Of a DNA stretch of 64,000 bases, positions 29,047-64,000 are shown piece after piece. The notes below the pieces were generated by a model. The model worked only from the letters and a program-made list of their open reading frames with translations, did no database searches and was not told the origin of the DNA. The translations under genes were made by a program, and so were the position numbers. Position 1 is the first letter of the stretch; every line of letters begins with the position of its first letter. Source of the DNA: Patescibacteria group bacterium UBA924 (GTDB lineage Bacteria > Patescibacteriota > Microgenomatia > UBA1400 > PJMF01); assembly GCA_002293725.1 (NCBI GenBank), contig DBDU01000026.1, positions 6,313-70,312 on the forward strand, read 5' to 3'.

Positions 29047-30570
29047 ATGAAAAAGTTACTGGTCGCTCTCCTCACAAGCGCCGTTTTCTTCCTTGTGGCT
29101 ACGAAAAGCGCGGAAGCGATTGGGTGTACCCCAGTTATTTTCGAAGGCGCTGAAGGTTCATCTCTTCTCCGACCAGTCAATGGTCAGATACTACCCGCAG
29201 GCTCTGCTACTAACCCCTACGTTGCCTACCCAATTACTCCTCAAGAAGCTAGTGGTGCAAATGCACTGCGAAGTCCAGGTATCCACTGGTGTTGGAGGAA
29301 TACACAAGGAACGGGATTGGGCAGCGGTGCTTGTCAAAGTAATGCTCTTTCCAGCACATATCTAAACGATGTTCGAATTTACACTGACTCCACAGGACAA
29401 CAGTATATCGCTGCACCATTCACTCCTTATTCAGGGAGCACCGCAGATATTCAGTGGGAAGTTGCTCCTTGGGCAGGTGATGGATGGGGTGAGCGTCTTT
29501 GTGTTCAAGAAGGAACTGCCATCATTCGCACCGGTGAGGTTGGCCAATTCAGTTGTAATAATCCAGGCACTTCCGCCTCTTATACCAATCAAAATGTCCA
29601 CGTCGGTGTCAGCGTTTCTGACAGGAACATGGATCGTAGTCGTTCCTATATAGCGATGATTAAAGGCCAAGGTGCCTTTGACCTCGGTGGTGGCTGGGCA
29701 ATACCTTTACAGTATGATGCCGCCCAGAACCAGTACGAGGGTGGGTCTACTTATGGGGCTAATTTTGGTGATGGCACCTATACAGTGGTGATCTCTGATG
29801 CGAGTAACTTAGGCTGCAGGACTATTACTGACAACTTTGACATTCGTAACTGTGCTGTTTTCCCCCAATGTATTAGCTCGCTGCAAGTAGATCGAACTGA
29901 TCCTGACAATCAAGTTGACTATGAAGATCGAGACCAAGTTCTAGACGATGCTTCGGAGCGACAAGGCCTTGCCCCTAACGATAGCATCACTCCATTTAGT
30001 CTGTGTCGTCAAATTCCAGTCATGGCTCAACCCGATATCGAAGCACAAGTAGCCCAAATTCAAGATCCACAAGCCGCCGCTGCCATGCGGGCAGATTTAA
30101 TGCGACGTGCACAAAGTCAACGGAGTGAAAAAGCCAAGTGTTGTCTATGTACGTATGGCACAAATGCTGTTGATCCCGCCACTGGTGCTTGCCAAGGAGA
30201 GATCGGCACACCAGGACAAACAAATCCCAGTCTTTATTACTTCCGTCGTAACTTCAAACCAGGAATTTATACTGCGGTTGGTTGTATTGGAGCTGATAGT
30301 GAAAGTATCATCACCCGTTTAGTGAGAATCGGTTTGGGAATTGCGGGTGGCTTGGCTTTGTTAATGATCTTAGCTGGAGCATTCATGTTCTCCACTTCCC
30401 AAGGGGAACCTAAACGAGCCAGTGAAGCCAAAGAGCTGATTACCTCTGCGGTTTTAGGTTTAATCTTTATCATCTTCTCTGTAACTTTGCTACAATTCAT
30501 TGGTGTCACTATCCTGCAACTTCCTGGGTTTGGGCAAACACCACAAGCTCAAGAATCTACAGGTAACTAA
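29047..30570 (+). CDS. Secreted protein with a C-terminal VirB2/TrbC-like two-helix pilin module
   Basis: A signal peptide (MKKLLVALLTSAVFFLVATKSAEA) precedes a ~400-aa Cys-containing ectodomain. The C-terminal ~100 aa (GLGIAGGLALLMILAGAFMFSTSQGEPKRASEAKELITSAVLGLIFIIFSV) align with the pilin-like paralog family at 36.7-39.8 kb. Confidence 0.55.
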   Translation: MKKLLVALLTSAVFFLVATKSAEAIGCTPVIFEGAEGSSLLRPVNGQILPAGSATNPYVAYPITPQEASGANALRSPGIHWCWRNTQGTGLGSGACQSNALSSTYLNDVRIYTDSTGQQYIAAPFTPYSGSTADIQWEVAPWAGDGWGERLCVQEGTAIIRTGEVGQFSCNNPGTSASYTNQNVHVGVSVSDRNMDRSRSYIAMIKGQGAFDLGGGWAIPLQYDAAQNQYEGGSTYGANFGDGTYTVVISDASNLGCRTITDNFDIRNCAVFPQCISSLQVDRTDPDNQVDYEDRDQVLDDASERQGLAPNDSITPFSLCRQIPVMAQPDIEAQVAQIQDPQAAAAMRADLMRRAQSQRSEKAKCCLCTYGTNAVDPATGACQGEIGTPGQTNPSLYYFRRNFKPGIYTAVGCIGADSESIITRLVRIGLGIAGGLALLMILAGAFMFSTSQGEPKRASEAKELITSAVLGLIFIIFSVTLLQFIGVTILQLPGFGQTPQAQESTGN

Positions 30571-30579
30571 GGACTCCTT

Positions 30580-30888
30580 ATGCTACTCGCTCAAAACTTT
30601 GATGAGTTCAACCCACTGGTGATGGAGTCAACGAAAGCAACTCAGTTGAGTACCCCAGGTGGAATTATTACTGAGTTACTCCGTTATATCTTCCCCGCTG
30701 CTGGTTTAATTTTGTTTGTGATGATTGTTTGGGGTGGATTCGAGATGATGACTAGTAGCGTCGCTGGTAAAAAAGATGCTGGCCGCCAACGTGTAACTAC
30801 TGCCGTCATTGGCTTCTTACTTCTCTTCGCAACATACTGGATTGCGCAGTTGGTAGAGGCAGTCTTTGGCGTTAGCTTTTTAGGATAG
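30580..30888 (+). CDS. VirB2/TrbC-like pilin-family small membrane protein (paralog 8)
   Basis: The family pattern is present (two hydrophobic helices separated by ...SSVAGKKDAGRQRVTTAVIGFLLLF...). An AAGGA RBS lies upstream. Confidence 0.55.
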   Translation: MLLAQNFDEFNPLVMESTKATQLSTPGGIITELLRYIFPAAGLILFVMIVWGGFEMMTSSVAGKKDAGRQRVTTAVIGFLLLFATYWIAQLVEAVFGVSFLG

Positions 30889-32652: not shown

Positions 32653-32656
32653 GATC

Positions 32657-34520: not shown

Positions 34521-34527
34521 ACTTCAC

Positions 34528-34722: not shown

Positions 34723-34745
34723 AAAATCCTTTCCCGACCAACTTT

Positions 34746-35600: not shown

Positions 35601-36014
35601 CTACTTGCGAAAGGCTAGCAGGAAGCGAATAGTCAGGTAGCCCACCAGTATCTGCCAATATAAACAGAAAAAACTAATCCAGGTCGCGAGAATATTAATA
35701 GACCGACAAATCAAAGGATAGTACGGATAACAATCAAACCAAACCTCTAGGTTCGGTAGAATCCACCATCTCCATGAGAGCATTAGAAGAAATAAGATCC
35801 CTGAAGGTAGAACTGTCAGCCAAAGAAAAATCTTTTCTTGCACTACCGACTGCAAGGTTTGATAAGGATGCACAATCATTCCCGCCGTAATTCGTAGCAC
35901 GGCATACACGGCAGAAAAAAACCAAGAGTGACTACGGAGTGAGATACTCATATTTGATGAACTAAAACCATAATAATGGTGGTAACTGTCGAAAGTAGTA
36001 CCAGTGTCTGCCAA
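35601..36014 (-). CDS. Polytopic membrane protein (hypothetical)
   Basis: The 137-aa ORF is hydrophobic. It overlaps the 35948..36148 ORF in a different frame, so one of the two may be mis-called. Confidence 0.3.
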   Translation of the reverse strand: MADTGTTFDSYHHYYGFSSSNMSISLRSHSWFFSAVYAVLRITAGMIVHPYQTLQSVVQEKIFLWLTVLPSGILFLLMLSWRWWILPNLEVWFDCYPYYPLICRSINILATWISFFCLYWQILVGYLTIRFLLAFRK

Positions 36015-36148
36015 GGATGATTACCAATAAAGGTAGTTAACCAATCGGCATGTTTAGGTAAGAAGCGAGTCGTACTTAAATGCGCTTGCAGCGCTGCTTG
36101 CTCTTGAAGCTGTTTGAGGAACTGACTCTCAGAAGTGTCACGTGACAT
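35948..36148 (-). CDS. Small single-TM protein; candidate anti-sigma factor
   Basis: The 66-aa ORF sits 14 bp downstream of the ECF sigma gene and has a C-terminal TM helix. The call rests on position only. Confidence 0.3.
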   Translation of the reverse strand: MSRDTSESQFLKQLQEQAALQAHLSTTRFLPKHADWLTTFIGNHPWQTLVLLSTVTTIIMVLVHQI

Positions 36149-36162: not shown

Positions 36163-36702
36163 TTACTCTCCCTCTAAGGCATATAGCTCTCGAAACTCAA
36201 GCCGAGCTCTAAAGAGTAATGACTCAATTGACTTATCAGATTTCCCTAGCTCCTGTGAGATAAACTTGATCTTTTGTTTATCAATATACTTTCGTTGTAA
36301 AAGCTCTCGAGAAGTAGCTGACATCTTGCGTAGCACCGACTTTACTTTTTGGGAGATTTCATAGGAGTTTTCTAGTTCAGGAAGTTCCTGATTCTCACTG
36401 ACAGGTAGCGTTTGAATAACTTTTTTAGCGTAAAGGCGGCGATAGTAATCTGCTACTTCATGTCGAGCTACGTTTAACATCCACGTCCAAATACTTGATT
36501 CACCCCGAAAAAGTGGCAGATGCTTCATACACTCCATGAAAGTATCTTGCACAATCTCATCAGCATCGTGGTCACTCTGCACTTTTCGCTGAATATATGT
36601 CCGTAAAGGAGCAGCATACTCCTGGTACCAAGCTTGTACGGCTTCAGGCCGACCGTACTTGAGGTCAATGAGGAGTTGCTTATCGGGTAAAAAACGTTTC
36701 AT
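36163..36702 (-). CDS. ECF-type sigma-70 family RNA polymerase sigma factor
   Basis: A region-2 pattern (DEIVQDTFMECMKHLPLFRGESSIWTWMLNVARHEVADYYRR) and a region-4 HTH near the C-terminus are present. Confidence 0.8.
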   Translation of the reverse strand: MKRFLPDKQLLIDLKYGRPEAVQAWYQEYAAPLRTYIQRKVQSDHDADEIVQDTFMECMKHLPLFRGESSIWTWMLNVARHEVADYYRRLYAKKVIQTLPVSENQELPELENSYEISQKVKSVLRKMSATSRELLQRKYIDKQKIKFISQELGKSDKSIESLLFRARLEFRELYALEGE

Positions 36703-36717: not shown

Positions 36718-37056
36718 TTGACGTATAATATCATTATGCCATGTGACATTACCCGACCAAACCTGGATCTTGGCGAGTGCTACGCACTTAATGAAACGCA
36801 GACTGTGCGTGATGTTTACACTGACCCAGCTTTCTTGGTGAACTTAATTGTACGAAATGTATTCGTCGTCGCCGGAATTATTCTCTTTCTTTTAGTGGTT
36901 TACGCTGGTTACTTATTTATTACAGGTGGTACCAAAGGGATTGAGAAAGCTAAAGAAGTGCTTCAAGGTGCATTGATTGGTTTTTTTGTAATGTTTGCGG
37001 CATACTGGATCGTACAGATTATTAAGGTGGTGACAGGGGCTGATATTCCGATCTAA
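36718..37056 (+). CDS. VirB2/TrbC-like pilin-family protein, paralog 1
   Basis: Two hydrophobic helices flank the loop ITGGTKGIEKAKEVLQGALIGFFVMF. An alternative start is the ATG at 36736. Confidence 0.55.
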   Translation: MTYNIIMPCDITRPNLDLGECYALNETQTVRDVYTDPAFLVNLIVRNVFVVAGIILFLLVVYAGYLFITGGTKGIEKAKEVLQGALIGFFVMFAAYWIVQIIKVVTGADIPI

Positions 37057-37121
37057 AAGCGGAACTCTCTCCTAGATTGCAAGTTTTAGGAACCGAAGTA
37101 AAATATCTATCTAGTCATTAC

Positions 37122-37559
37122 ATGAATATACGAAAACGCGTTTCGCTAGCACTTCTCCTCTTAGTGACCTTTTTTGTTGCCACGCCTACTGTCGCTTTAG
37201 CCCAAGTCTTTGGTGAAGTTGAGGCTCCTCCAGGAGTTGCTGAGTACAATGCCCCTCTGGGTGAGGACGGTATCGGTATTATTGTGTTCATGTCCACTCT
37301 CATTCGCATCGCAACTATCGTTGCGGGCATCATTGTCTTCGTCAACTTCATTTTGGCTGGGTATAAGTACATTAGTTCTGATGGCAATGCCAAAGTAAAT
37401 GAAGAAGTGAGAAATCAACTGACATACAGTGTCATTGGTTTGTTAATTATTGTGGCCTCGTACACTATCATCGCCATTATCAGTCTCTTACTCTTTGGAA
37501 AAGCTGACTTTATTCTTAACCCAACAATTACAGGACCAAGTACACCTCAAGTTATATGA
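37122..37559 (+). CDS. VirB2/TrbC-like pilin-family protein, paralog 2
   Basis: A signal peptide (MNIRKRVSLALLLLVTFFVATPTVALA) is followed by helix, loop (ISSDGNAKVNEEVRNQLTYSVIGLLIIV) and helix. The ORF-track start at 37077 is probably too early. Confidence 0.55.
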   Translation: MNIRKRVSLALLLLVTFFVATPTVALAQVFGEVEAPPGVAEYNAPLGEDGIGIIVFMSTLIRIATIVAGIIVFVNFILAGYKYISSDGNAKVNEEVRNQLTYSVIGLLIIVASYTIIAIISLLLFGKADFILNPTITGPSTPQVI

Positions 37560-37951
37560 TGTTGCCAACCCTTCTCGCACAAGCAAATCTCGGCGGCGGC
37601 TTTACTCCACCAGGCGGAGAGAACACTACCTTTGTTCCCTCTAATCTTGATTCTGCTGAAGGAGTTTTCACTACTGGCTCAAACTTGATTTCGTATATCT
37701 TTACCTTCTTAACTGTTTTTGCTGGCATCATGTTCCTCTACCAATTCATCCGTGGAGCACTTGCCTGGATCTCTGCTGGTGGTGATCAAAAGAAGATTTC
37801 TGAAGCACGAGACATGATTACTCAGGGAGTAATTGGCTTAGTGATTGTCATTGCTGCCTACTCTATTATTGGTTTGATCAGTACCGTCCTCGGGCTCGAT
37901 CTCTTGAACCCAGGTCAACAACTCTTAGAACTGGTTCCACAACCAATCTAA
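37556..37951 (+). CDS. VirB2/TrbC-like pilin-family protein, paralog 3
   Basis: The start overlaps the paralog 2 stop (ATGA). The loop reads ISAGGDQKKISEARDMITQGVIGLVIVI. Confidence 0.55.
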   Translation: MMLPTLLAQANLGGGFTPPGGENTTFVPSNLDSAEGVFTTGSNLISYIFTFLTVFAGIMFLYQFIRGALAWISAGGDQKKISEARDMITQGVIGLVIVIAAYSIIGLISTVLGLDLLNPGQQLLELVPQPI

Positions 37952-37957
37952 ATACTT

Positions 37958-38404
37958 ATGAAGAAATACGTCGCACTCATCACCGCCTTCATCCTCCTCT
38001 TTACGGGAGTATTTTTGGCAACTGCATTACCTGTTTCTGCTCAGGTACCTCCTCTTCAAAACGAAGCTATTCCAGACAATCTTTCTAACTACGGTGAAGC
38101 TCGCACTGGTGCCAGTGCGGCTTTCTACTTAGTTTTCATCTGGCGAGCCTTGATTTTTGTCGGTGGCTTAATGGTAATCATCTACTTCATCTTGGCTGCC
38201 TTTGAGTGGATTACGGCCAATGGTGAAGCCAGTAAAATCAGCTCTGCCAGAAATAAAATGACTGGTGCGATTGCTGGATTTATCGTCTTGTCTGCACTTT
38301 TTGTCCTGCTTGAGTTCTTAGGTGGTTTATTTGGCTTTGATGTCTTATCACCGACAATTCCTACGCCTACACAAGCACCAGTAAATCCAGGTACATTTAT
38401 ATGA
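37958..38404 (+). CDS. VirB2/TrbC-like pilin-family protein, paralog 4
   Basis: A signal peptide (MKKYVALITAFILLFTGVFLATALPVSA) is present. The loop reads ITANGEASKISSARNKMTGAIAGFIVL. Confidence 0.55.
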   Translation: MKKYVALITAFILLFTGVFLATALPVSAQVPPLQNEAIPDNLSNYGEARTGASAAFYLVFIWRALIFVGGLMVIIYFILAAFEWITANGEASKISSARNKMTGAIAGFIVLSALFVLLEFLGGLFGFDVLSPTIPTPTQAPVNPGTFI

Positions 38405-38802
38405 TGATGCTTCCTTCTTTCCTTCAAGTTACACTCGATCTTCGTGGTGAAGCAGTTGAACAACAGCTTCCTTTTGTTAGCGCGGGTGAAGGTGGTTTTG
38501 AGCGATTTTTAAGTAGCATTTTGACCGCACTGATGGCTCTCGCTGCACTTGCAGTACTCATCTTCCTGCTCTGGGGTGCGTTCGACTGGATTAACTCTGG
38601 TGGTGAAAAAGGCAAGGTTGAATCTGCACGTAACAAGATGACCGGAGCCGTTATGGGTTTGGTTATGCTCGCTGTGGTTTTAGCCATTTTCATGTTTATT
38701 CAACAGATTTTGGGTATTCGCATTTTGAACTTCGTTGGTCAGCCAAGTTCTACTCCTGCACCTCGAGTAGTACCAGGAAGATTCCAGCCTACTCAGTTTT
38801 AA
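38401..38802 (+). CDS. VirB2/TrbC-like pilin-family protein, paralog 5
   Basis: The start overlaps the paralog 4 stop. The loop reads INSGGEKGKVESARNKMTGAVMGLVML. Confidence 0.55.
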   Translation: MMMLPSFLQVTLDLRGEAVEQQLPFVSAGEGGFERFLSSILTALMALAALAVLIFLLWGAFDWINSGGEKGKVESARNKMTGAVMGLVMLAVVLAIFMFIQQILGIRILNFVGQPSSTPAPRVVPGRFQPTQF

Positions 38803-38857
38803 GCTGGAGATAGCGGAATAAACCGTGAGTGTGCTAAAGTAAAAAAGAGAAGAATCC

Positions 38858-38886
38858 TTGACGGGATCTCGAAGAAAACATATAAT
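38858..38886 (+). promoter_or_regulatory. Sigma-70-type promoter for paralog 6
   Basis: A -35 TTGACG and a -10 TATAAT are separated by 17 bp. An AAAGGAG RBS sits 6 bp before the ATG at 38932. Confidence 0.5.
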
Positions 38887-38931
38887 TTAAACAGTATCTC
38901 AACGATACTAAACAGTAACAAAAGGAGTCAC

Positions 38932-39333
38932 ATGAAAAAACACCTGAAAGCACTCGCCGCTACAGGAAGCGCTGTGGGTATGTATCTTTCTACCGCAGTT
39001 GTCTCAACTGTAAAGGCTCAATACGATGTAGCCGTTCCAACTGGTTATGCTACCAATATTGGTAACTTAATTAGTTTCGTGCTTCGTGTAGTTTTAGCAG
39101 TTGGTGCTTTACTCGTCTTCGGTTTCTTAGTGCTGGGTGGTATCGAGTACATTACCTCAGGCGGTGAAAAAGGTAAAACTGAAGCTGCACGTAACAAAAT
39201 TACGGCTGCTATCGTTGGTTTAATTATCTTAGCCGCATCTTGGGCTATCCTAAACTTGGCCTTAGGATTCTTAGGCTTGAGTGGTTTAGAAGGTGCTTTA
39301 CAAGAAGTGGGTGATATTAACGAAACCCGCTAA
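38932..39333 (+). CDS. VirB2/TrbC-like pilin-family protein, paralog 6
   Basis: The loop reads ITSGGEKGKTEAARNKITAAIVGLIIL. Nucleotide-level similarity to paralog 5 is visible across this block. Confidence 0.55.
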   Translation: MKKHLKALAATGSAVGMYLSTAVVSTVKAQYDVAVPTGYATNIGNLISFVLRVVLAVGALLVFGFLVLGGIEYITSGGEKGKTEAARNKITAAIVGLIILAASWAILNLALGFLGLSGLEGALQEVGDINETR

Positions 39334-39357
39334 AGCATTTTTAGTAAATGAAAACAG

Positions 39358-39382
39358 AACCCCCGCTAATGCGGGGGTTTTT
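39358..39382 (+). terminator. Rho-independent terminator after paralog 6
   Basis: A 9-bp GC-rich stem (AACCCCCGC / GCGGGGGTT) with loop TAAT is followed by TTTTT. Confidence 0.7.
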
Positions 39383-39384
39383 GA

Positions 39385-39390
39385 TATAAT
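39385..39390 (+). promoter_or_regulatory. -10 box (TATAAT) 10 bp upstream of the paralog 7 ATG; short or leaderless transcript
   Basis: The element tataat is followed by ttgactgtc and then the ATG at 39400. Confidence 0.35.
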
Positions 39391-39399
39391 TTGACTGTC

Positions 39400-39831
39400 A
39401 TGAAATCTCGACCCCTCTCAATACTCACTTTCCTGCTCTCTTTCACAACCGCTGCACTCATCTTTGCCCAACCCGTTGCTGCGCAAACTAGCCCTTGGGG
39501 TGGAGTGTGTACAGATGATCGCACTGCTACAGGTGTAGCTACGATCCAAGGTTTTCAATGTTTGATTGGTAATGTTCTACAAGTTGGGGTAGCTGGAGTT
39601 GGCTTGGCAGGTTTTGTGATGATGATTATTGGAGCCTTTAAGTACTTGCTCTCTGGTGGCAATGCTAAAGGGATCGATGAGGGTCAAAAAACAATGACTT
39701 ATGCTATTGGCGGACTTATTCTGGCGCTCAGTGCCTTCTTTATTTTGAACATCATTTCTGACTTCACCGGCGTGCAAAGTATTATGAACTTTAGAATTCC
39801 GGCACCCGGAATTAATGCCGATATTCCTTAG
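39400..39831 (+). CDS. VirB2/TrbC-like pilin-family protein, paralog 7
   Basis: A signal peptide (MKSRPLSILTFLLSFTTAALIFAQPVAA) is present. The loop reads LSGGNAKGIDEGQKTMTYAIGGLILAL. Confidence 0.55.
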   Translation: MKSRPLSILTFLLSFTTAALIFAQPVAAQTSPWGGVCTDDRTATGVATIQGFQCLIGNVLQVGVAGVGLAGFVMMIIGAFKYLLSGGNAKGIDEGQKTMTYAIGGLILALSAFFILNIISDFTGVQSIMNFRIPAPGINADIP

Positions 39832-39876: not shown

Positions 39877-42800
39877 ATGGCCTCAACCCGGAAAAGATCT
39901 CTAGTTCCGATTCTCTTGTTCTGTGTCTTACTGACCTTAGTGGTGGCGAAGGTGATCAACTTTTTATTACCAAAGCCTTTAGCCATCCAGCCTCCGACCA
40001 TTCCAATTGCCGCTCCTATCGCTGCCAATAGAAACGTCGATCCAAATAGTATCCGTGTTGTCGCGCAACTTGCTCAAGGCACGATTCCTCAGCAACCAAC
40101 CTCTACTCCTGTTTATGCCAGTTGTGCGGAGATTCCAGAACCTCCATCTGAAGAGGGCATCTTCCCCAACTGTAGTGTTTCTAATATCGCCGACTTTGTT
40201 GCTCCAGATTGTGGTGGCGTAGGTTCAAGTTGTGGAGTTGTTAATGGTAGCTCCATAACCTTAAGCGACTCGTATATCGGAAATGTGACCAATGAAGTTG
40301 AAGTTATCAAAAAAGACTCGACAGGCACATACATTAAGCAAAAATCAAATGATATTCACTTCATCTACCGCCGAAATCCTGATGGCAGCGTGAGTTTAGT
40401 ACAAGATACTATCTGGGGCGGTGGTCCGGCAGGTGGTTTCTTCACTTGTGACGGAACAACTCAAGAAGCGTTCTATCGTGTATACGACGCAAATGGCAAT
40501 CTAGGTAACAGTCAGTACGCCAGCTCTGCAACTTGTGGCGGCCCAGAACACCAGAACGTCAGTGTTTTAGGCACCTTCAAAAAAGTTAGTGATAGTGGCA
40601 TCAATATCAACGACCCTGGCACAGACCCACTCATTTCTGATGGCTCTTTAACTTCTTGTAACGTTAGCGGCCAAACTGGCATTCCAGTTGGAAATAAAAA
40701 TCGCCTAATTTATCACGGAAATGCTGTCTGTAACGGGGTTCCTTTTGAGATGATTGCGATGCAGAATACCGAGGGCGCAGGTGCTGGTGAAGTTAACATG
40801 TACTGCAAAGGAAAAGGTATCTGTGCGTTTTACCAGTTACTGGACCTGACAGTCGAAGAAAACAAACCCATTAACTGGGATGGCAAAGATCTTTGTAACT
40901 TACAAGCTGGTGGCAGCCGTGAAAATCTGACGACCTACTTTGAGTACAACCTTCAACGTCAGTGTAAAGAAACTCCCACCAAGGTTTTAAACAACTTTCT
41001 GGATGAGTACTCCGTGAGCTGTGTGCCTGAGGCTGACTATATCTTGAGTTTCCTCGACCGAGAGCTGTGCGCTCTCACAGATAAAGGCTGCTACAACTGG
41101 AACACTACTGGTGACTTGCGCTTTGCTGCTAGCGGTTCACTCTTTGGTCTCTTCCGAAATCAAAATGCAGTTGAAGCTCGATATAACACCATGAACGGAC
41201 TAAAAGATAAAGATCGTCAGGAATCCATTGAGGCATACCTAACCGCCAAAGTTGATGAGCTGCCGTTGTCTGCACAAAGTTCTAATATCCAGTTCAATGG
41301 TCTGAACCCAGCCAACGCCGAAAACTTAACAATGTATCAATCTCCGCTGTATAAGCTCAGTACTCTCGAGCAGCAGTGTCAACTTGTGTATGACAAGCTA
41401 ACTGCCGTGGAAGAGCTCTGTTTGCCTTTTAATCGAATTGAGGGCACCGAGAACGAGCCTTGTGCAATCAACCAATTTTTGCCCAATACCAGCTTGCGAT
41501 ATACCGACATGTTAACCAAGATGCGTGCGCCGAATGGTGAGTCGAAGTGTGAGTCACTCATGAACCCAAGTGCTAATAATACTGAGGCGACTGCACTGCG
41601 TGATCAAATTTTAAGTATTGATCCCGCTATGGAAGTTGCTTACCGGCCAGCATTTATCGTCGTAGCTAGTTTTGTAGGTAAAGATCCTGGTGAAATCTTA
41701 AATCCAGAGTTCTTGTCTCAGGGAAACGACAAATCAAAGTTCTGGCAAGTTGACTATATGGAAGTCAAAGTTCCCACTTTTGGTTCTGACTTCATGCATA
41801 AAGACAATATGGCAAATGCCAGTAATCCGACTCGTCCCGGTTCATCTTACCGAGATCCACTCCGTTTCTTGGCCGACGTCCTGACCACACCGGAAATTCA
41901 AGAAATGTACCGCCAAGAAGAAGAAAATGATCGCAATGCTATTCGTAGCAAAGTAATTGTTCCTCCTGATCGTGGCGCGGTGCAGCCTGGTGACATCATT
42001 GGTATGGGTGGGTACCCAATTAAGTGTCGTTTCCAAAAAGGTACCTATACTGAAGACGCATGTGATTACATGGCTCGAGCACTGATCGCATTTATCAATG
42101 CAAGTAATGTTGTACCTGTAACACCAGGTGAAGGCGAAGGTGGTGCTAGCGTCACTCGTCAATTTAGTCCTGCCCGTTCCTGGCTCCCTGCCTCCAAATG
42201 TGATACCAGTGGTTCTCAGGGAGCGTTGTACGAAAAAAATCTCTATGGGAATTCAGTCCTCACTGAAGATCCCGTTGATCCGAAGTATCGTGTCGCAGAA
42301 GAAGCTCAAACAATAGGCTCAAAGCTCGAAGCAGTTAACCAAGGTTTTTACGAAAAGAAACTCGAGGGCTTTGCCGAGGTAGAAGCTAACGTCACTGACA
42401 TGAATCCCCCCCCGGGAGCTCAAGGCCTAAAAGGTGGTGATTTCGGGCATACACAAGTCTTCTTCGTGTCTCCACATAACTACACTCTTTTATATGCCCA
42501 AAACGCAATGTTGTCGTTGTTAACCGAAGAACAACAAGAGATCTTCCTGAAGAACGAGAACTTCAACTCAGTTATGAAAACCACCGGATTAGACAACTTC
42601 TCTAGCTCGATTGCGATTAGTTACTATGATGATGCCACACCAGGAACCACTCCGCCGCCAGTCATTCCTGGCGAAACTGCGCCTCCATTAAACCGCAAAC
42701 CAGTCACTGCAGAGCTACAACGTAAGAAAGATGATGAACCACCGAATCAGGGTAAGACTCTGGATAGCCCATTGATGTGGCAAGTTGCTGGAAGCATTGC

Positions 42801-43593
42801 GAACATTCCAACTCGTCTTTACACTTTGGTTTCCACTACCTTGGATAACCCAACTCGCCTCTTTACTTTAGGCTGTACAGGGTCATATGCAACTGAGCAG
42901 TGGCTACTCGGTCGTTGTACTCCAGTCAAACCAGAAGACGCTGCAACTAACCCAGGAAATGTACCTCCCTCTAATAACGCCAGCAATCAATGTGTGGCAG
43001 TTTATATGGATGCGGCTGAGGCACAGACAGCAGCGGCTGAGATCCGCGCCAATTTACCAGGTCAACAACTGCAAAGTCCAAGCTTTGCGGGATGGGCAAG
43101 ATACTACAGTGTGGGTGATCGACCTGAGATTCAACATCTCTTCCAAAACCACTGTAATAATGGTCAGCCTTGTATCGACTACATCTTGGATCAAGTGCTC
43201 AACACCTCAATCAATGGTAAGACACTTAATCCATATCTCGTAATGTCAATTGCGATGAATGAGACAGGTGGCTTAATCAGCTCTAAGCCTGGCTATGTTG
43301 GTCCTCACTTTGGTTGTGGTATAGGTGGAAGTGGCCAGGGCGGTCAGATCATTTCCGACGGCAGCATCGAAAGTAAGCTGCAATGTTTGACGGGCTTTTT
43401 CCAAAATTATGCCGCACGTACTAGACCAGAAGAGCAATCCGATGACGCAGCACTTACTCTGTATGGCTACCGCAATGGTTCCCGCAACAACAACTTGGTT
43501 AAAATTATGGGTATCTTGAGCAATGGTAAGTATCCGTTGGAAAGTTGTAATGGCTCTGGAACAACACCTGCTCCAAGCCCCACCCAAAATTAA
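39877..43593 (+). CDS. Large (1238 aa) secreted or membrane-anchored protein of unknown function, with a possible C-terminal lysozyme/transglycosylase-like region
   Basis: An N-terminal signal-anchor (LVPILLFCVLLTLVVAKVINFLL) is followed by a Cys-containing ectodomain. The C-terminal block PYLVMSIAMNETGGLISSKPGYVGPHFGCGIGG resembles an SLT 'A.a..ES/TG' catalytic region. Confidence 0.55.
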   Translation: MASTRKRSLVPILLFCVLLTLVVAKVINFLLPKPLAIQPPTIPIAAPIAANRNVDPNSIRVVAQLAQGTIPQQPTSTPVYASCAEIPEPPSEEGIFPNCSVSNIADFVAPDCGGVGSSCGVVNGSSITLSDSYIGNVTNEVEVIKKDSTGTYIKQKSNDIHFIYRRNPDGSVSLVQDTIWGGGPAGGFFTCDGTTQEAFYRVYDANGNLGNSQYASSATCGGPEHQNVSVLGTFKKVSDSGININDPGTDPLISDGSLTSCNVSGQTGIPVGNKNRLIYHGNAVCNGVPFEMIAMQNTEGAGAGEVNMYCKGKGICAFYQLLDLTVEENKPINWDGKDLCNLQAGGSRENLTTYFEYNLQRQCKETPTKVLNNFLDEYSVSCVPEADYILSFLDRELCALTDKGCYNWNTTGDLRFAASGSLFGLFRNQNAVEARYNTMNGLKDKDRQESIEAYLTAKVDELPLSAQSSNIQFNGLNPANAENLTMYQSPLYKLSTLEQQCQLVYDKLTAVEELCLPFNRIEGTENEPCAINQFLPNTSLRYTDMLTKMRAPNGESKCESLMNPSANNTEATALRDQILSIDPAMEVAYRPAFIVVASFVGKDPGEILNPEFLSQGNDKSKFWQVDYMEVKVPTFGSDFMHKDNMANASNPTRPGSSYRDPLRFLADVLTTPEIQEMYRQEEENDRNAIRSKVIVPPDRGAVQPGDIIGMGGYPIKCRFQKGTYTEDACDYMARALIAFINASNVVPVTPGEGEGGASVTRQFSPARSWLPASKCDTSGSQGALYEKNLYGNSVLTEDPVDPKYRVAEEAQTIGSKLEAVNQGFYEKKLEGFAEVEANVTDMNPPPGAQGLKGGDFGHTQVFFVSPHNYTLLYAQNAMLSLLTEEQQEIFLKNENFNSVMKTTGLDNFSSSIAISYYDDATPGTTPPPVIPGETAPPLNRKPVTAELQRKKDDEPPNQGKTLDSPLMWQVAGSIANIPTRLYTLVSTTLDNPTRLFTLGCTGSYATEQWLLGRCTPVKPEDAATNPGNVPPSNNASNQCVAVYMDAAEAQTAAAEIRANLPGQQLQSPSFAGWARYYSVGDRPEIQHLFQNHCNNGQPCIDYILDQVLNTSINGKTLNPYLVMSIAMNETGGLISSKPGYVGPHFGCGIGGSGQGGQIISDGSIESKLQCLTGFFQNYAARTRPEEQSDDAALTLYGYRNGSRNNNLVKIMGILSNGKYPLESCNGSGTTPAPSPTQN

Positions 43594-44619: not shown

Positions 44620-44648
44620 TTGCGGGATCTCTTGAGGTGGGATACAAT
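44620..44648 (+). promoter_or_regulatory. Candidate promoter (-35 TTGCGG, 17-bp spacer, -10 TACAAT) for the VirB6-like gene
   Basis: The -10 element ends 7 bp before the ATG at 44656, consistent with a leaderless or very short-leader transcript. Confidence 0.3.
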
Positions 44649-44655
44649 AGCGGTT

Positions 44656-46341
44656 ATGAAGAAACTGGCTGCTTTTTTCTTGGCATTTTTCCTCTTTGCA
44701 GTCTCTGTCCAACCAGCTTTAGCTCAAGACCGCGGTCTTACTGCTACTCAGCAACAAACCCAAGTTAATGAAAACTACAAAAGCGGAAATACGAGTATCG
44801 GTGGTGTCACCAACGAAATCGTCAAAGTTGCAGCCACAGTTCTCGGTCCTTGTCAGTTAACTGATGACGATTGTGGAGACTCATCTGGTGGACCATCCGC
44901 AAGCCGATCAATTATCAACGCTTTTACATATCTCTATACTCCTCCAGCAGATACTCAAACCTACATTGCTGATGTAATGAACTCTGCAGGTTTGAACATT
45001 GCTCAGCCAGCATATGCTCAAGGGCTAGGCTTCTCTTCTTTGGACCCAGTTCTTGATACCTGGAAAGCTTTTCGTAACGTCGCCTACTTGTTCTACGTAA
45101 TCATGTTCTTAGTCATCGGTTTCATGATTATGTTCCGACAGAAGATTAGCAGCCAGGCTGTGGTAAGCGCCCAACAAGCTTTACCAAAAATTATTGTTTC
45201 ACTGATTGCGGTCACTTTTTCCTACGCGATTGCTGGATTATTGATCGATGCCATGTACATCGTTATGTACTTAATCGTCGGTCTCTTCCCTGCTGCAACC
45301 TTTGGTAACCCTGGAAGTGAACAAAGTTTGAAAGACATTGCGATGGACCGCAACATCTTCCAGATTGGAACATACTTGTTGACCAGTGCCGGAACCCTTC
45401 AAAACGCCCAAGAATCGGTCCGTGCCATGATCCGTTCAGCCTTTGACACCCAACTTTCAGGCGTGGGTGATGCTTTAGGTTTAATTGGTGGACTTACCTT
45501 TGCGGTTGTCTTTGCCTTAGCCACCTTGTTTGGTATCTTCCGTTTGTTCTTTGAACTCTTGAAGACCTATATCAGTATTATTATTAGCATCGTCCTTTCT
45601 CCACTGGCATTAATGCTGGGAGCACTTCCTGGGAACAACGCTTTCCAGGCCTGGATTAAAACCTTGGTGGCTAACTTAGCAGTCTTCCCAGGAATCTTAT
45701 TAATCTTGGTCTTAGCCTTCATGTTAATTGGTGGCCAGTACGGTGGGAGACCAACTGCTCAACAGGTTGTTCCTCAAGTACAAGCGCAAGATACGTTCTT
45801 CCAAGGCTCATACAATGGTGGCTTCTTACCGCCATATATTCCTGGTGCAGGTAGTGGTAACGCTATCTCAATTATGTTGGGTCTAGGTGTAATCTTAATC
45901 ATGCCAGATCTGGCTGCTTCAATTAAGAAAACACTCGGTGGTTCCGGTGGAATCTTTGAACAGTTTGCCAATAACTTCACTACCAACTTAGAAAAAGGTT
46001 GGAAAGGTGGCGAGTTAGTTCCCGGACTGGGCTTTACCAATACCAACAACTATGGCGTATCTGGCCGTAACATCGCCTCTAAGCTATGGCGTGGCACTAA
46101 AGAAAGCCGTGAACGAGCTGAGAAGGGTCAACCAAATGTTATTGGGCGTGGCATAGTGGGTGAAAGTGCCGAGCTATATAAACGTGTTCGTCGTCAGCAG
46201 ATGGAAGAATATATGCGTAACAAAGTTCCTCGCGTGAAGCTAGGTAAGACCGAAAGCGAAGCCAAAGACCGACAGGTTCGTATGGGTGGACCTCCAAAGA
46301 CTCAAGTACCTCCATCTTCAGGGAGAATTGATGGGGAATAA
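44656..46341 (+). CDS. VirB6/TrbL-like polytopic membrane protein
   Basis: A signal peptide (MKKLAAFFLAFFLFAVSVQPALA) is followed by at least six TM helices (FYVIMFLVIGFMIMF; IVSLIAVTFSYAIAGLLIDAMYIVMYLIVGLF; LIGGLTFAVVFALATLFGIF; ISIIISIVLSPLALMLGALPG; LVANLAVFPGILLILVLAFMLIGG). The C-terminal tail is basic and hydrophilic. Confidence 0.5.
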   Translation: MKKLAAFFLAFFLFAVSVQPALAQDRGLTATQQQTQVNENYKSGNTSIGGVTNEIVKVAATVLGPCQLTDDDCGDSSGGPSASRSIINAFTYLYTPPADTQTYIADVMNSAGLNIAQPAYAQGLGFSSLDPVLDTWKAFRNVAYLFYVIMFLVIGFMIMFRQKISSQAVVSAQQALPKIIVSLIAVTFSYAIAGLLIDAMYIVMYLIVGLFPAATFGNPGSEQSLKDIAMDRNIFQIGTYLLTSAGTLQNAQESVRAMIRSAFDTQLSGVGDALGLIGGLTFAVVFALATLFGIFRLFFELLKTYISIIISIVLSPLALMLGALPGNNAFQAWIKTLVANLAVFPGILLILVLAFMLIGGQYGGRPTAQQVVPQVQAQDTFFQGSYNGGFLPPYIPGAGSGNAISIMLGLGVILIMPDLAASIKKTLGGSGGIFEQFANNFTTNLEKGWKGGELVPGLGFTNTNNYGVSGRNIASKLWRGTKESRERAEKGQPNVIGRGIVGESAELYKRVRRQQMEEYMRNKVPRVKLGKTESEAKDRQVRMGGPPKTQVPPSSGRIDGE

Positions 46342-50757: not shown

Positions 50758-50775
50758 GTTTCTTTTTTTCTACGC

Positions 50776-52356: not shown

Positions 52357-52502
52357 AGTTCCTCACTTACATTCTTTACAATTACAACTTGATCCAGATG
52401 ACGAGGAAATTATAGCACCAGGAAAGAGGTCTGTGGCAAGGAAAGAACTGCCGTTTCTTCAATTGACAAACCTATAAAAAGTAGGTCAAAGTAAGCTCAG
52501 AT

Positions 52503-56083: not shown

Positions 56084-59000
56084 ATGGTTGATTCCCTTGC
56101 GCCAGCTGCAGAGCAGTTGAAGAAGTGCGCTGTTCATCACTCCATCTCTCAAAAAGACCTTGAACGACTTTTAGGTGTCATTATTGAGTCGCTTCAAGTT
56201 GGAGAGAGTGTTCGCGATCCAGAGACTCAACTTCCGGCTATCTATCCCGAGTGGTTAGACATCGAGTATGTTCGTGAACACTCACCCAACAACACAACTC
56301 CAGCTGGTTTTTACGTTAACCCCCGCTTGCAAAGGCGCAACGAAGAGACACCTGCTAATATTTTGGCGCTGAAAGATGTTTGTGACATTTTCAAAAGCAT
56401 CGCTGGTTTGGGAGAAGATGGTGACAACTTCATTGATGAAAAGATTCGGAGCGGTGAGTATGGTGGCTATGATCTTCTCGATGAAGAACAAGCTAACCTG
56501 ATCAACCGCATTAAAAATGATTACAATGGCGAACTACTCCCTCCGGACCTGAACTACCTTCGTGGTGACTCCCGTGTCTTACTATCTATCATCGCCACGC
56601 TCCATGCTGGATCGGCAGCAGAAGGTGAAGAAGTTGAAACGGTACTAACCCTTCCTGACGAGTTCAAAGCATTACTAGAGGGTGACCTTAACTTAGGCGT
56701 TTCTTGGGAGTGGGTAAAACCGCTCATTGAAGACGTTCTCCCCACGAAGCTCAATGCGCCTACAGTAGTTTTCCGTTACAACGATCAGAAACGTGCTGTC
56801 GCTGTCACCGAAATTCGTTTTTTCCTTAATAATTGGTTGCGAAAGTTCTACGAGGAGTACCAGCAACGGTTCCGTGAAGTTGGATTAGAGCTTCCTGAAA
56901 CAAAGCTGTTCGATGCAACGAACAAACTCGTTGCTTACTTTGACCTTCCTTATTGGGTTGAGCTGGATCAAGACATTATCACCTTTATCTCTAAAGAGCT
57001 CTCCCCACTGATTGAGCAGTATCTGAAACGTGGTCAGCCCACAGGGGTAGGCCTTGGATACCAAAAAGAAAATACCGAAGACGAAGAGAAAAAAGAGAAA
57101 CTTACTGAGAACATCAAGAATGTTGAAGAAGCTGACGATCTGCTTGAGCGTTTCTCACAAGCGGGAAAGTCTTACTCCCAAGAATCTGAACGTTTAACTA
57201 CCATTCTGTTACCTCAGTTGTTTAACATGCATGGCATCAGCCGTGATCTCACACAGCTGGGCCAGATTGATGATAACAGTCTCTTCCTGGTGGAGCGAGA
57301 GTTTAGACAAGAACTAGAAAACGTTCTACGTACTCTGACACCACAAGAGTTTGCGCTTCTTTCTGAACGTGGTGGTTCTCTGGAATTTCGTTTAATCGTT
57401 CTCAGAAAGTTGTATGGCAAGCTTTCTACAAACCCTCGTTTTATTGCTTCAATTCAAGAGTTCAAAGAAAACTATGTTTCTTACTTAGAAGAACGGGCTG
57501 CTGATGGTGACCAGGCCGCCCAACGAGAACTCAACAAACTAGAGCGTCAAATCAATCTTCCAGATCAGCGGTTTGATGAGGAGCTCGCTAAGAGCGAAAA
57601 AGTTCCGCCAGAAGAATGGACAAAGGAATTGAGTAAAGGTGGAAAAGGTGTTGGTGAAGTAACACTCCAAGAGTTTGCAGACCTTCACAAGATTTCCCAA
57701 GAGGATTTTCGTTTCCTCGCAACAAGACTTGTTGGAAATGATATCGACTTCCCAACACTCCTACGAAACTTAGACGTCATCATCGCTGAGCGGTGGTCGC
57801 CAGAGCAAATTCGTGGACTTGATCCCGGTGGTTCTACAGCTATCTTTGGTCTCGTTCTTCCAGATTATCTCACTCAAGATGGTCACCGTTTCCAACTCTT
57901 CCTCAACTTGTGTGCAGAGTACCTTTATGCCCGTCGCCAACATCTTGCTGACCACTATCAGCTGGATGCAATTAGTCGCCAGACTGGGAGCGGGTCAACA
58001 GACCTTGCCAGCCTCCAAGCCGCTCAAGAAATGGCTGAGCGGTACAAAGAGTATGGTGGTGGTGAAGCTCTGGTGGTCGGACGCGCCAGTGATAGTAAGC
58101 GTGTAGAAGAGTATCAACACGGAAACAAATTTGGCGTGGGAATTTCCGGAGTTCACAGTGAAACCAAAGAGCAACGAAAAGGACAGTTAGAAACTCATAA
58201 AAATACTACTCGTGCGCGTTTCCACGAGATGAGCATTGATGACAAACGGAAACAGCTTCAAAGTTTAGGTCTTTTAACTCCAGATAATGAACAGTTCATT
58301 GGCGATGACGAGCTGCGAATGGCTCAGCTTTTAGATACTGGACTTAATGAAGACTATGACGACGGTGTTCGTGGCTTGGATGACTTTTCGTACTACGAAG
58401 ACCAAGATAACGGATACGTCCAAGAGCAGCTTGGAACTGGACAACGAAGTATCCCTCAACGCTATGGAAGACCGGGTGGTCGCTCTCTGCTAAAAGGGGC
58501 TCTTAACTTAAAAAATCGATTCCAGAAAGCACAAAAAAGAATCAAGCAAGCCAAGAAGATTGCCAAAGCAGCCAAAAAACTGGCTGACAAAGGTTTAGAG
58601 AAAGTTGAAGCTGCTGCTGCATCGGTGGTGATGGGTCCGTTAGCACAGAATAAAACGCTTCGTCGTGGCATTCTTGGAGTATTAACAGCCCTCGTTCTTG
58701 ATACTCTAAACATGATCCAACAAGGCTTCTTTGCCAAAGTTGGAGCTTTTTTGGGTGGAGCTTTAGGTGGAATTGCTGGTGGAGCAGCCGGTGGTGTTTT
58801 TGTTATTCCTGGCGCAATTGTGGGCACCTTTGGTGGCGCTCGACTAGGTCATGGAATTGATCAGTGGTTTGCCAATACTTTTGGTGGTGCCCCCGAGGTT
58901 CGAGTCTCAAGCCCCGGTTTGAGCTTACCACTAGCTAAACAATCAGCCGATACTTTAACTGGTAGCGCCAAAGTTAGTGGCGGCGAGTTTGCCAAGACAA

Positions 59001-60151
59001 GTACTAATGCTTGGCCTGCAATCGCAACATCTGGTGGCTTCATGGCCACGGTAGGACTAGCTGGCGCAGTTATTACGGCTTCCATTCAACCCCCACCACT
59101 CGGAACTATTGGCGCTAGTGGACTGGAGTCTGAGTATGTGATCGTCGAAAAGGTCATTACTGACCCGGCTAACTTTACAGGAGATGTTGTTCCCTCATCT
59201 ATTACCTACACCATTAGTGTTGAAACAAAAGGTAACTACCAAATTGAGATCGTCAACTTCCAGGATCAAATTCAGTTAACCCCAAATACTGAGGTGCGTG
59301 GCTCAGAAGCACCCCCGGCGGCCCTTTCCTGTCCTGATTTTACATTTGCCAACCTTGCCACTCGGGTGATTGGTCCTAATGACGGAAAAGTTCAGATCGG
59401 AACGTGTACTATCACCCTTGATCAGAGTTACCACGATACTGGGATCTTTAATAAGTTCACCATGCAGTTTAAGGTTTCAGAAAATGGCCAAGCTGTCACC
59501 AACTCTAGCCCTGATTTCAACTGTGGTGAAACGAGCGATACTTTCTGTGCAATTTCTGGTGTTCAAGCCTGTCTAGGAGACTGTCCACTTCAACAAGAGG
59601 GCTGTTGGCCAACATCGGGAAGGTTAACTCAAGGTCCTGGAGGTGAGGGTTCTCATAGAAACACTGCTGCTATTGATATTGGTGCGAGGCTTGGTACGAA
59701 TGTCTATGCCACATTTGACGGCACTGCCTATGCCTTTGACACTTACGCCGCAGAGCCATCTAACCAAGGTTTGATTGATCGCACAGGAAAGAGTGGTGTC
59801 TACTCCAAGTCTTATGGAAAGCATGTTGTTCTCATTACCAATCAAGGCTTTGCACTTCTTTTTGCTCACTTAAATAGTCACTCTTCTACCCTGCGCTTAG
59901 GTACTCCAGTTCCAGTTACAGCAGGTACTATTCTTGGATATGTGGGAAATAGCGGAAGTACCACTGGCTTACAAATGGGAATGCACCTTCACTACGAGTA
60001 TCGCGTTCCAACGGGTAATAGTTGGCAAACGATACGATCTACCAATGGTGCTCAAATTATTGGGGTTCTTCCTAATGAAACCGGAGAAGCGTTTGTCTTT
60101 AATGGCACACGACAAGTTACAAGTTGTTATGATGCAAGTACTCCACAATAA
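56084..60151 (+). CDS. Giant (1355 aa) protein with a ~900-aa N-terminal soluble region, a glycine-zipper membrane segment and a C-terminal M23 (LytM-type) metallopeptidase domain
   Basis: The glycine-zipper segment reads FAKVGAFLGGALGGIAGGAAGGVFVIPGAIVGTFGGARLG. The M23 blocks are HRNTAAIDIGARLGTNVYATFDGTAYAF and GYVGNSGSTTGLQMGMHLHYEY. Confidence 0.7.
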   Translation: MVDSLAPAAEQLKKCAVHHSISQKDLERLLGVIIESLQVGESVRDPETQLPAIYPEWLDIEYVREHSPNNTTPAGFYVNPRLQRRNEETPANILALKDVCDIFKSIAGLGEDGDNFIDEKIRSGEYGGYDLLDEEQANLINRIKNDYNGELLPPDLNYLRGDSRVLLSIIATLHAGSAAEGEEVETVLTLPDEFKALLEGDLNLGVSWEWVKPLIEDVLPTKLNAPTVVFRYNDQKRAVAVTEIRFFLNNWLRKFYEEYQQRFREVGLELPETKLFDATNKLVAYFDLPYWVELDQDIITFISKELSPLIEQYLKRGQPTGVGLGYQKENTEDEEKKEKLTENIKNVEEADDLLERFSQAGKSYSQESERLTTILLPQLFNMHGISRDLTQLGQIDDNSLFLVEREFRQELENVLRTLTPQEFALLSERGGSLEFRLIVLRKLYGKLSTNPRFIASIQEFKENYVSYLEERAADGDQAAQRELNKLERQINLPDQRFDEELAKSEKVPPEEWTKELSKGGKGVGEVTLQEFADLHKISQEDFRFLATRLVGNDIDFPTLLRNLDVIIAERWSPEQIRGLDPGGSTAIFGLVLPDYLTQDGHRFQLFLNLCAEYLYARRQHLADHYQLDAISRQTGSGSTDLASLQAAQEMAERYKEYGGGEALVVGRASDSKRVEEYQHGNKFGVGISGVHSETKEQRKGQLETHKNTTRARFHEMSIDDKRKQLQSLGLLTPDNEQFIGDDELRMAQLLDTGLNEDYDDGVRGLDDFSYYEDQDNGYVQEQLGTGQRSIPQRYGRPGGRSLLKGALNLKNRFQKAQKRIKQAKKIAKAAKKLADKGLEKVEAAAASVVMGPLAQNKTLRRGILGVLTALVLDTLNMIQQGFFAKVGAFLGGALGGIAGGAAGGVFVIPGAIVGTFGGARLGHGIDQWFANTFGGAPEVRVSSPGLSLPLAKQSADTLTGSAKVSGGEFAKTSTNAWPAIATSGGFMATVGLAGAVITASIQPPPLGTIGASGLESEYVIVEKVITDPANFTGDVVPSSITYTISVETKGNYQIEIVNFQDQIQLTPNTEVRGSEAPPAALSCPDFTFANLATRVIGPNDGKVQIGTCTITLDQSYHDTGIFNKFTMQFKVSENGQAVTNSSPDFNCGETSDTFCAISGVQACLGDCPLQQEGCWPTSGRLTQGPGGEGSHRNTAAIDIGARLGTNVYATFDGTAYAFDTYAAEPSNQGLIDRTGKSGVYSKSYGKHVVLITNQGFALLFAHLNSHSSTLRLGTPVPVTAGTILGYVGNSGSTTGLQMGMHLHYEYRVPTGNSWQTIRSTNGAQIIGVLPNETGEAFVFNGTRQVTSCYDASTPQ

Positions 60152-63303: not shown

Positions 63304-64000
63304 ATGCCCTCTTCACAAGCAATTACTTCTACTACCCAAGAGTTTCTCGATATCCACGACATCACGGATAATTTATTGCTGCTCAAAAGTGGTGGGGCAG
63401 CTCTAATCGTCCAAGTTACGGCGATGAACTTCGGCTTATTGGCCGAAGAAGAGCAAGATGCCATCATTTATGGTTACGCTGGCTTGCTCAACTCACTCAA
63501 CTACTCTATTCAAATTGTAATTCGCTCCCAAACAAAAGACGTTACCAGCTATCTCAACTTGTTGCGCCAAAAGGAAGAAGAAGCACTCAGCTCTGCCCGC
63601 AAAGAACAAATCCGACAGTATCGTGAGTTTGTTGCTGATCTTGTTCAAGAACGGAATGTCTTGGATAAAAAGTTTTACGTAGTTATTCCAGCTAGTGGCA
63701 TTGAACTCGGCATTGTTCAAGCTCAAAGTATTTTGCCTGGTGTTAAGAACCCTGATATTTCGAGTTTTGATCGCAGCATTATTATCGAGCGCGCCAACAA
63801 CCTGCTTGAGCCCAAGCGGGATCACATCATGGCCCAGTTTGCTCGAATTGGTATGTTTTCTCGACAACTTATGACTCAGGAAATTATTCAGCTTTTCTAT
63901 ACTGCGTACAATCCAGAAGCTTCTGATGGTCAAAAAATGACCGATAGTCGTCAGTACACGTCCACTGCTGTAGAAGGCAACCTGGAAGAAAAGATCTTTG
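63304..64000 (+). CDS. VirB4/TrbE/PrgJ-like conjugal-transfer ATPase, N-terminal part; 3' end lies outside the window
   Basis: The frame is open to the window end. The N-terminal pattern (LLLLKSGGAALIVQVTAMNFGLLAEEEQDAIIYGYAGLLNSL...IQIVIRSQTKDVTSYLN...KKFYVVIPAS) resembles the VirB4 N-domain (kDGS...f.v.g.d....e.e.........ln.l...i..h.v.r......yl....). The gene follows a VirB3-like gene. Confidence 0.45.
   Translation, partial: MPSSQAITSTTQEFLDIHDITDNLLLLKSGGAALIVQVTAMNFGLLAEEEQDAIIYGYAGLLNSLNYSIQIVIRSQTKDVTSYLNLLRQKEEEALSSARKEQIRQYREFVADLVQERNVLDKKFYVVIPASGIELGIVQAQSILPGVKNPDISSFDRSIIIERANNLLEPKRDHIMAQFARIGMFSRQLMTQEIIQLFYTAYNPEASDGQKMTDSRQYTSTAVEGNLEEKIF

Follow-up and report, generated by a model that had tools for sequence, protein, structure and literature searches.

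Seven ordered pilin-like paralogs in a type IV secretion cluster of a Patescibacteria genome

We analysed a 64,000-nucleotide stretch of Patescibacteria group bacterium UBA924 (the window; GenBank assembly GCA_002293725.1, contig DBDU01000026.1, positions 6,313 to 70,312 of the forward strand). It carries seven consecutive small genes on the + strand at 36718-39831, numbered p1 to p7 below. The array is of a kind already described in Patescibacteria, and its recognition as a pilin-like array in a first-pass annotation was correct. The seven genes probably encode ancient, non-interchangeable paralogs of the family PF18895 that form one heteromeric surface structure of a type IV secretion system (T4SS), with p6 as the major subunit and the other six as accessory subunits. 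This reading is based on the family assignment and T4SS context, the comparison of each array position across genomes, the signals conserved around p6, and essentiality data from a relative.

Fixed order and family of the seven proteins

We compared the window with six independent metagenomic loci (L001, L003 and L005-L008), making seven loci in all. These six loci share the layout of the window, consisting of a reverse-strand sigma factor gene, exactly seven small genes, a gene of ~1200 amino acids (aa), a reverse-strand gene of ~300 aa, and a VirB6-like gene of ~565 aa. All-against-all BLAST among the seven loci placed the best match in each other genome at the same position in 294 of 294 cases. 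Position-specific hidden Markov models recovered the order 1-7 in four further species-level genomes, bringing the total to 11. Doubling of position 6 in L011 and L012 was the only change in copy number across the 11 genomes. The second position-6 copy in these loci (L011 8917-9969, L012 9929-11021) is longer, at 189-200 aa, and a 477-aa reverse-strand gene is inserted between positions 5 and 6 in L011. A scan with the position-6 alignment returned five loci only. The records of L009, L011 and L012 (GTDB CAZKNL01, CAZMXT01 and CAZNOF01) are titled 'uncultured Pseudomonadales bacterium' and contain a Patescibacteria-type array and synteny; their taxonomy is probably mislabelled in the public records.

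Orthologs were 45-80% identical to the pilins of the window, and the paralogs were 24-46% identical among themselves. Divergence of the pilins is similar to that of the neighbouring UppS (70-82% ortholog identity), the sigma factor (64-78%) and the VirB6-like protein (57-82%), with position 6 (70-80%) on par with UppS. Features specific to each position were kept as well, namely the Cys pairs of p1 and p7, the presence or absence of a signal peptide, and a C-terminal tail of its own. The first-pass annotation had proposed a recent duplication of p5 and p6 from two similar DNA strings. Both strings exist (at 38602 and 39160) but reach no further than the conserved loop motif. In an alignment of 70 codons, p5 and p6 have 55% DNA identity and 46% protein identity; of the 32 residues identical in the two proteins, 12 are encoded by the same codon, a share not exceeding that of other paralog pairs. 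We rejected a recent duplication on this codon-level comparison. Given the positional orthology, the identity levels, the housekeeping-like rates and the p5/p6 codons, we conclude that the duplications are ancient and the copies are under constraint, which argues both against recent duplication and against a repertoire of variants.

All seven open reading frames (ORFs) lie where they were first annotated, although two start codons required revision. Translation of p1 and p7 probably does not begin at the TTG codons first assigned (36718 and 39391), as the alignment of orthologous loci conserves an ATG equivalent to 36736 for p1 (106 aa) and 39400 for p7 (143 aa). The NCBI gene model of p7 is also 143 aa long, and the p1 TTG falls inside a conserved cTTGACGTATAAT box, 6 nt before the ATG. 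With the p1 start corrected, the size range of the proteins changes from 112-148 aa to 106-148 aa.

Each protein has two strongly hydrophobic segments of about 20 residues separated by a loop of 15-18 residues. Hydropathy and charge analysis found 2-4 Lys/Arg in the loop and acidic N-tails. The shared architecture described in the first-pass annotation (two hydrophobic helices, a short charged loop and an optional signal peptide) was thus borne out in all seven proteins. Its consensus block was approximate, with 7 to 21 of the 24 specified positions matched by each protein and a full match in none of the seven. Four copies (p2, p4, p6 and p7) have Sec-type signal peptides ending in A-x-A and cleaved before Q, and p1, p3 and p5 have none. 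The array therefore has the architecture of VirB2-type pilins (signal peptide, two helices and basic loop), with the signal peptide on four of seven copies only.

The individual genes, all on the + strand, differ mainly in their termini. Ortholog alignment revealed two conserved Cys in the acidic N-terminal tail of p1 (36736..37056), whose top match is PF18895 (E = 4.7e-4). The signal peptide of p2 (37122..37559, 145 aa) is kept in all orthologs. In the window, p3 (37556..37951, 131 aa) has a very short N-terminus (MMLPTLLAQA), and some orthologs have a longer one. The window copy of p4 (37958..38404, 148 aa) has a signal peptide that three orthologs lack, and none of the orthologs of p5 (38401..38802, 133 aa) has one. 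The stops of p2 and p4 overlap the starts of p3 (37556) and p5 (38401), confirming both ATGA overlaps noted in the first reading. The candidate major subunit, p6 (38932..39333, 133 aa), is followed by p7 (39400..39831), in which the signal peptide and a pair of Cys residues in the N-terminal region are both conserved.

Pfam family PF18895 (T4SS_pilin) was the top match for all seven array proteins. Its gathering score is 26.6 bits, which p5 (32.0 bits) and p6 (34.4 bits) exceed. The other five, p1-p4 and p7, score below it at 15.9-24.6 bits, with PF18895 still their top match. A profile built from the seven pilins identified 280 relatives among 8000 candidates scored, nearly all containing PF18895, and the few relatives listed with an organism name were all Patescibacteria. 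PF18895 was also matched by 62 of 62 members of a broader family alignment. The AlphaFold2 model of p6 is a helical hairpin (residues 43-75 and 80-113) with a four-residue turn at SGGE and a predicted local distance difference test score above 90 in the core.

The relation to classical VirB2 is more distant. PF04956 (TrbC/VirB2) matched none of the seven array proteins at E ≤ 1, and it cross-matched 17 of the 62 relatives at E < 0.1 (best E = 1.7e-6). Aligning the family to seven genuine, plasmid-encoded alphaproteobacterial VirB2 proteins with hhalign gave a probability of 22% over 10 columns, covering the signal-peptide cleavage site only. No pilin was found by hmmsearch of the family profile against PDB sequences, and Foldseek gave no significant match in the PDB; two-helix hairpins draw many non-specific matches. 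Homology to classical VirB2/TrbC is thus only weakly supported by these comparisons, and we therefore assign the genes to PF18895 and use 'VirB2-like' to describe their architecture. The initial description as VirB2/TrbC-like pilins accordingly holds for the T4SS pilin family and the T4SS cluster, but not for membership in PF04956. It had named holin-like or immunity proteins as the identity that would speak against pilins. We dropped that identity because no holin, immunity or phage family was matched in Pfam or PHROGs.

Two further genes bring the number of pilin copies to nine, the total first reported. The eighth, at 29047..30570 (+), encodes a 507-aa secreted protein with a large Cys-rich N-terminal domain ahead of a C-terminal pilin hairpin (PF18895 at residues 421-485, 27.7 bits). 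The ninth, at 30580..30888 (+), encodes a 102-aa protein (PF18895, 33.0 bits). This pair is conserved beside uppS in L001, L003, L005 and L006, with a SpoIID-domain gene also adjacent in L003 and L005. The 507-aa protein is possibly a pilin-anchored adhesin.

Position 6 and the proposed structure

Expression signals set position 6 apart from the rest of the array. A promoter-like site (TTGACG-17-TATAAT, 38858..38886, +) matching the consensus at 11 of 12 positions lies in the 129-bp gap before p6. This site and the AAGGAG ribosome-binding site that follows it are conserved in all seven loci, and a long upstream gap occurs only at position 6 (83-145 bp across loci). A canonical Shine-Dalgarno sequence precedes p6 only; p2-p5 lack one and are tightly packed or overlapping. 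Immediately after p6, a GC-rich hairpin followed by a T run (39358..39379, no strand assigned) is present in six of seven loci, with compensatory changes in four of nine stem pairs. Its cells were paired in 90.7% of cases, compared with 50-65% in slid controls. This element looks like an intrinsic terminator or attenuator. Position 6 is also the most conserved position, with 78 of 141 columns invariant, and its doubling in the more distant L011 and L012 is likewise in keeping with a major subunit.

The signals at the other two borders differ. Conserved TATAAT boxes lie 6-10 nt 5' of the ATG of p1 and p7 (36718-36736 and 39383-39400), with a spacing of 7-10 nt for p7. The TTG codons listed as starts of these two genes sit within these promoter-like elements. 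Given that the boxes are so near the ATG, leaderless mRNAs are likely for p1 and p7. We infer three transcription units, namely a translationally coupled p1-p5, p6 alone, and p7 with the 1238-aa gene that follows it. As p6 would form its own unit with a promoter, ribosome-binding site and terminator, we read it as the abundant product.

A model of the structure can be outlined from these observations. Each pilin would be membrane-inserted as a helical hairpin whose K/R-rich loop faces the cytoplasm and whose acidic N- and C-tails are exposed on the outside. The VirB4/VirB6 machine would then extract the pilins and assemble them into a single heteromeric structure at the surface, which could be a pilus or an extension of the channel. 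The abundant major subunit would come from position 6, and the other six would be low-abundance accessory subunits with exposed tails of their own, acting in initiation or as tip, adaptor or base. The 507-aa pilin-domain protein could display an adhesin. The mixed-subunit idea, one of the options raised in the first-pass annotation, thus fits the data best. A bolder version is an obligately heteromeric seven-subunit filament or conduit, decorated by the 507-aa adhesin and switched by the neighbouring extracytoplasmic function (ECF) sigma factor and an anti-sigma factor in response to a signal from the envelope or from host contact. We offer it as a tentative extension that is possible rather than probable. 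To our knowledge, no T4SS pilus is built or regulated as such a seven-subunit, sigma-switched structure.

Genetic data from a cultivated relative bear on the model. The T4SS is essential for epibiotic growth of the one genetically tractable Patescibacteria species studied by transposon sequencing (Tn-seq; PMC10633639). Wang et al. 2023 (PMC10633639) reported that the pilin array is essential in this organism, Southlakia epibionticum. All six of its array genes (SEML1_0014-0019) were individually scored as growth-defective and then essential in Tn-seq, unlike an unlinked pilin, SEML1_0024, that was not scored essential (PMC10633639 supplement). Individual essentiality of six pilins fits non-redundancy, although polar effects are possible.

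Several points weigh against a heteromeric pilus with p6 as its major subunit. No filament has been observed, and Gram-positive-type T4SSs normally lack a pilus (PMC12857230). The promoter, ribosome-binding site and terminator of p6 are consensus matches rather than measured expression. Signal peptides are missing in p1, p3 and p5 and variable at p3 and p4, such that export of the N-tail is assumed. Finally, the Tn-seq essentiality of such small genes may partly reflect polar effects and few insertion sites.

The alternative that survives best, although we judge it unlikely, is that there is no pilus and the proteins are integral subunits of a translocation channel or wall-spanning stalk, where they might, for instance, line or cap the core formed by the VirB6-like and PrgI-like proteins. 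Monoderm T4SSs without pili, the weak similarity to VirB2 and the three copies lacking a signal peptide are all in keeping with a channel, and a fixed, translationally coupled gene set of stoichiometric appearance resembles the subunits of a defined complex. However, the family cross-matches TrbC/VirB2 models, and the sequence hallmarks of very high expression at one copy are a better fit to a polymerising subunit. The same hairpin also stands behind a large extracellular domain in the 507-aa protein, as it would in an adhesin displayed on a tip or shaft.

We consider it very unlikely that the array is a variation repertoire of interchangeable alternative major pilins serving antigenic variation or adaptation to host strains. 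Such variation is the reading put forward for the VirB2 arrays of Bartonella (Trw) and Anaplasma, and PMC12102498 suggests and favours it for Patescibacteria. The strong divergence of the paralogs, greatest in the exposed N- and C-tails, and the doubling of position 6 in two lineages would suit such a repertoire. However, those tails are conserved within each position, one-to-one positional orthology is complete (294/294), and the order is identical in 11 genomes. Copy number (apart from the doubled position 6), order and identity are fixed across these genomes, divergence of the pilins does not outpace that of UppS, the sigma factor or the VirB6-like protein, and the codons give no sign of recent duplication or gene conversion. 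The marks of an amplified, variable VirB2 array (recent amplification, variable copy number and rapid divergence) are therefore lacking, and antigenic variation, also floated in the first-pass annotation, is disfavoured. Moreover, individual essentiality of the six Southlakia copies would be unexpected for interchangeable variants.

Highly improbable is the notion that these are secreted or membrane effectors, or unrelated holin- or immunity-like proteins with two transmembrane helices that merely adjoin the T4SS: a TM7x transcriptome preprint treats the homologous array genes as putative effectors, the TM7x literature uses the name 'Sec secreted array' for them, five of the seven fall below the Pfam gathering threshold and hairpins match non-specifically, yet PF18895 is the top match throughout with no holin, immunity or phage family in Pfam or PHROGs, soluble secretion is unlikely for proteins with two 22-24-residue hydrophobic helices, and all genomes examined keep strict synteny with T4SS genes.

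The surrounding secretion cluster

The array is part of a chromosomal, origin-proximal, monoderm-type T4SS cluster that ends at dnaA. This cluster contains VirB4, VirB6-like and PrgI-like (VirB3-like) genes, the context expected of VirB2-class pilins. A polytopic membrane protein of 573 aa (44620..46341, +) with about eight hydrophobic segments and conserved synteny is a candidate VirB6-like component; its sole Pfam signal is a weak TrbC match at residues 127-175. Further downstream on the same strand are a candidate T4SS cell-wall hydrolase of 1355 aa with a C-terminal M23 peptidase (56084..60151; PF01551, E = 1e-10) and a PrgI-family (VirB3-like) protein fused to a CarboxypepD_reg domain (61306..63276; PF12666, 35.1 bits). 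A TraC-like ORF of 294 aa starts within the window (63304..64000, +) and is likely the detached N-terminal part of VirB4. Past the window, the source contig continues from this ORF into a 741-aa VirB4 ATPase (domains CagE_TrbE_VirB, P-loop_TraG and AAA_10), dnaA, dnaN, rpmH, rnpA and yidC. VirB4 thus appears split into a 294-aa N-terminal ORF and a separate 741-aa ATPase directly upstream of dnaA (L021 11999-15112).

A VirD4/TrwB-like coupling-protein ATPase of 778 aa is encoded at 12357..14693 (-), with TrwB_AAD_bind, DUF87 and TraG-D_C domains and matches to the NCBIfam VirD4-like and TraD families. It lies 22 kb from the array, whereas the Southlakia T4SS is described without a recognisable coupling protein. 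The ORFs scanned included no relaxase.

Directly 3' of p7 in every locus is a gene for a membrane-anchored or secreted protein (39877..43593, +, 1238 aa) that is 52-69% identical to its orthologs. It had no match in Pfam, NCBIfam or the PDB, and scanning GTDB genomes with this single protein returned no relatives. A VirB1-like lysozyme domain in its C-terminal 299 aa was considered and proved unsupported, with no relative in the PDB. For six large ORFs nearby, Pfam and NCBIfam returned nothing. Within the cluster, 46645-56075 is occupied by four large ORFs (1370, 526, 506 and 612 aa) for which neither Pfam nor NCBIfam gave a match above noise; they also lack hydrophobic segments and a Walker A motif.

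An ECF-type sigma-70 family gene (36163..36702, -, 179 aa; Sigma70_r2 and r4_2 domains) is divergent from p1, and the start codons of the two genes are separated by only 33 bp. Beyond it are two small membrane-protein genes (35948-36148 and 35601-36014, both -; 66 and 137 aa), which possibly include an anti-sigma factor. All three genes are found at this location in every syntenic locus. The ECF sigma factor is a candidate for regulating the array.

A mevalonate-pathway block (GHMP kinases, a diphosphomevalonate decarboxylase-like gene and a NUDIX/Idi-like gene) lies at 31645-35402, between the two pilin loci. An amino-acid-kinase-family gene stands in for part of this block in L001 and L005 (3556-5361), and genes for HMG-CoA reductase, HMG-CoA synthase and thiolase are added to it in L007 and L008.

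Relation to known arrays and pili

The pilin array is the feature setting the T4SS of Patescibacteria apart from other monoderm T4SSs. The window holds no new phenomenon, but comparing genomes narrows the range of explanations. The seven copies look like non-redundant parts in a fixed set rather than a repertoire of variants, position 6 stands out as the candidate main structural subunit, and the adjoining ECF sigma factor is a candidate regulator. Southlakia or TM7x would allow a direct test of all three predictions.

Arrays of this kind have been reported repeatedly. A 2018 preprint (McLean et al., 10.1101/258137) described Saccharibacteria arrays of 4-6 small signal-peptide proteins related to VirB2, and a 2025 review (PMC12857230) singled out the six divergent pilins as remarkable for a Gram-positive-type T4SS. 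Quinonero-Coronel et al. 2025 (PMC12102498) counted 441 arrays of 2-11 pilin genes in 383 assemblies, with a mean identity of 25% and a maximum of 54%, noted their proximity to dnaA, and suggested antigenic or host-range versatility. The claim in the first-pass annotation that nine copies are unusual therefore applies to classical T4SSs, yet such arrays are typical of Patescibacteria. The window displays the features by which that paper recognises a Patescibacteria VirB2 array, having seven tandem genes, 24-46% identity and VirB4 on the same contig. It also shares with these arrays PF18895, tandem divergent small pilins, and a monoderm-type T4SS with PrgI, VirB6 and VirB4 near dnaA. The text of PMC12102498 has no occurrence of 'sigma', whereas a divergent ECF sigma gene sits beside the array here. 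Strict positional orthology and a promoter, ribosome-binding site and terminator set at one copy are, like the divergent ECF sigma gene, absent from the passages of that paper that we read. Southlakia has a similar 4-nt overlap of adjacent array genes (SEML1_0015/0016). Southlakia differs in having six copies, compared with seven and two outlying pilin-domain genes here. The lineage of the window also seems, tentatively, nearer to Microgenomates/Pacebacteria than to Saccharimonadia; a search with UppS returned mostly 'Patescibacteria group bacterium' entries and one Ca. Pacebacteria match at 57%.

Classical VirB2/TrbC proteins (PF04956; Agrobacterium VirB2 and RP4 TrbC) resemble the array proteins in their small size, long signal peptide with the same cleavage motif, two hydrophobic helices joined by a short basic loop, and encoding within a T4SS. 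They differ in that PF04956 matches none of the seven and three array copies lack a signal peptide. Classical systems are also diderm, with one copy and VirB5 and VirB1 partners, and such partners are not recognisable here. The Bartonella (Trw, trwL) and Anaplasma/Ehrlichia systems likewise have several tandem VirB2-type genes in one T4SS locus. Their arrays are interpreted, as cited in PMC12102498, as recent amplifications whose variation serves immune evasion or host-range adaptation, whereas the copies here are ancient, one-to-one orthologous across genomes and divergent at housekeeping-like rates.

Among the nearest known systems are the archaeal Ced/Ted conjugation-like pili (A. pernix pilin, PDB 8dfu). 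Type IV pili and the pseudopili of type II secretion belong to an unrelated family and machine, and the array proteins have no class III signal peptide or prepilin-peptidase motif. The likeness to them is a functional analogy only: one abundant subunit accompanied by conserved, non-redundant minor paralogs, as we infer for the array described here.

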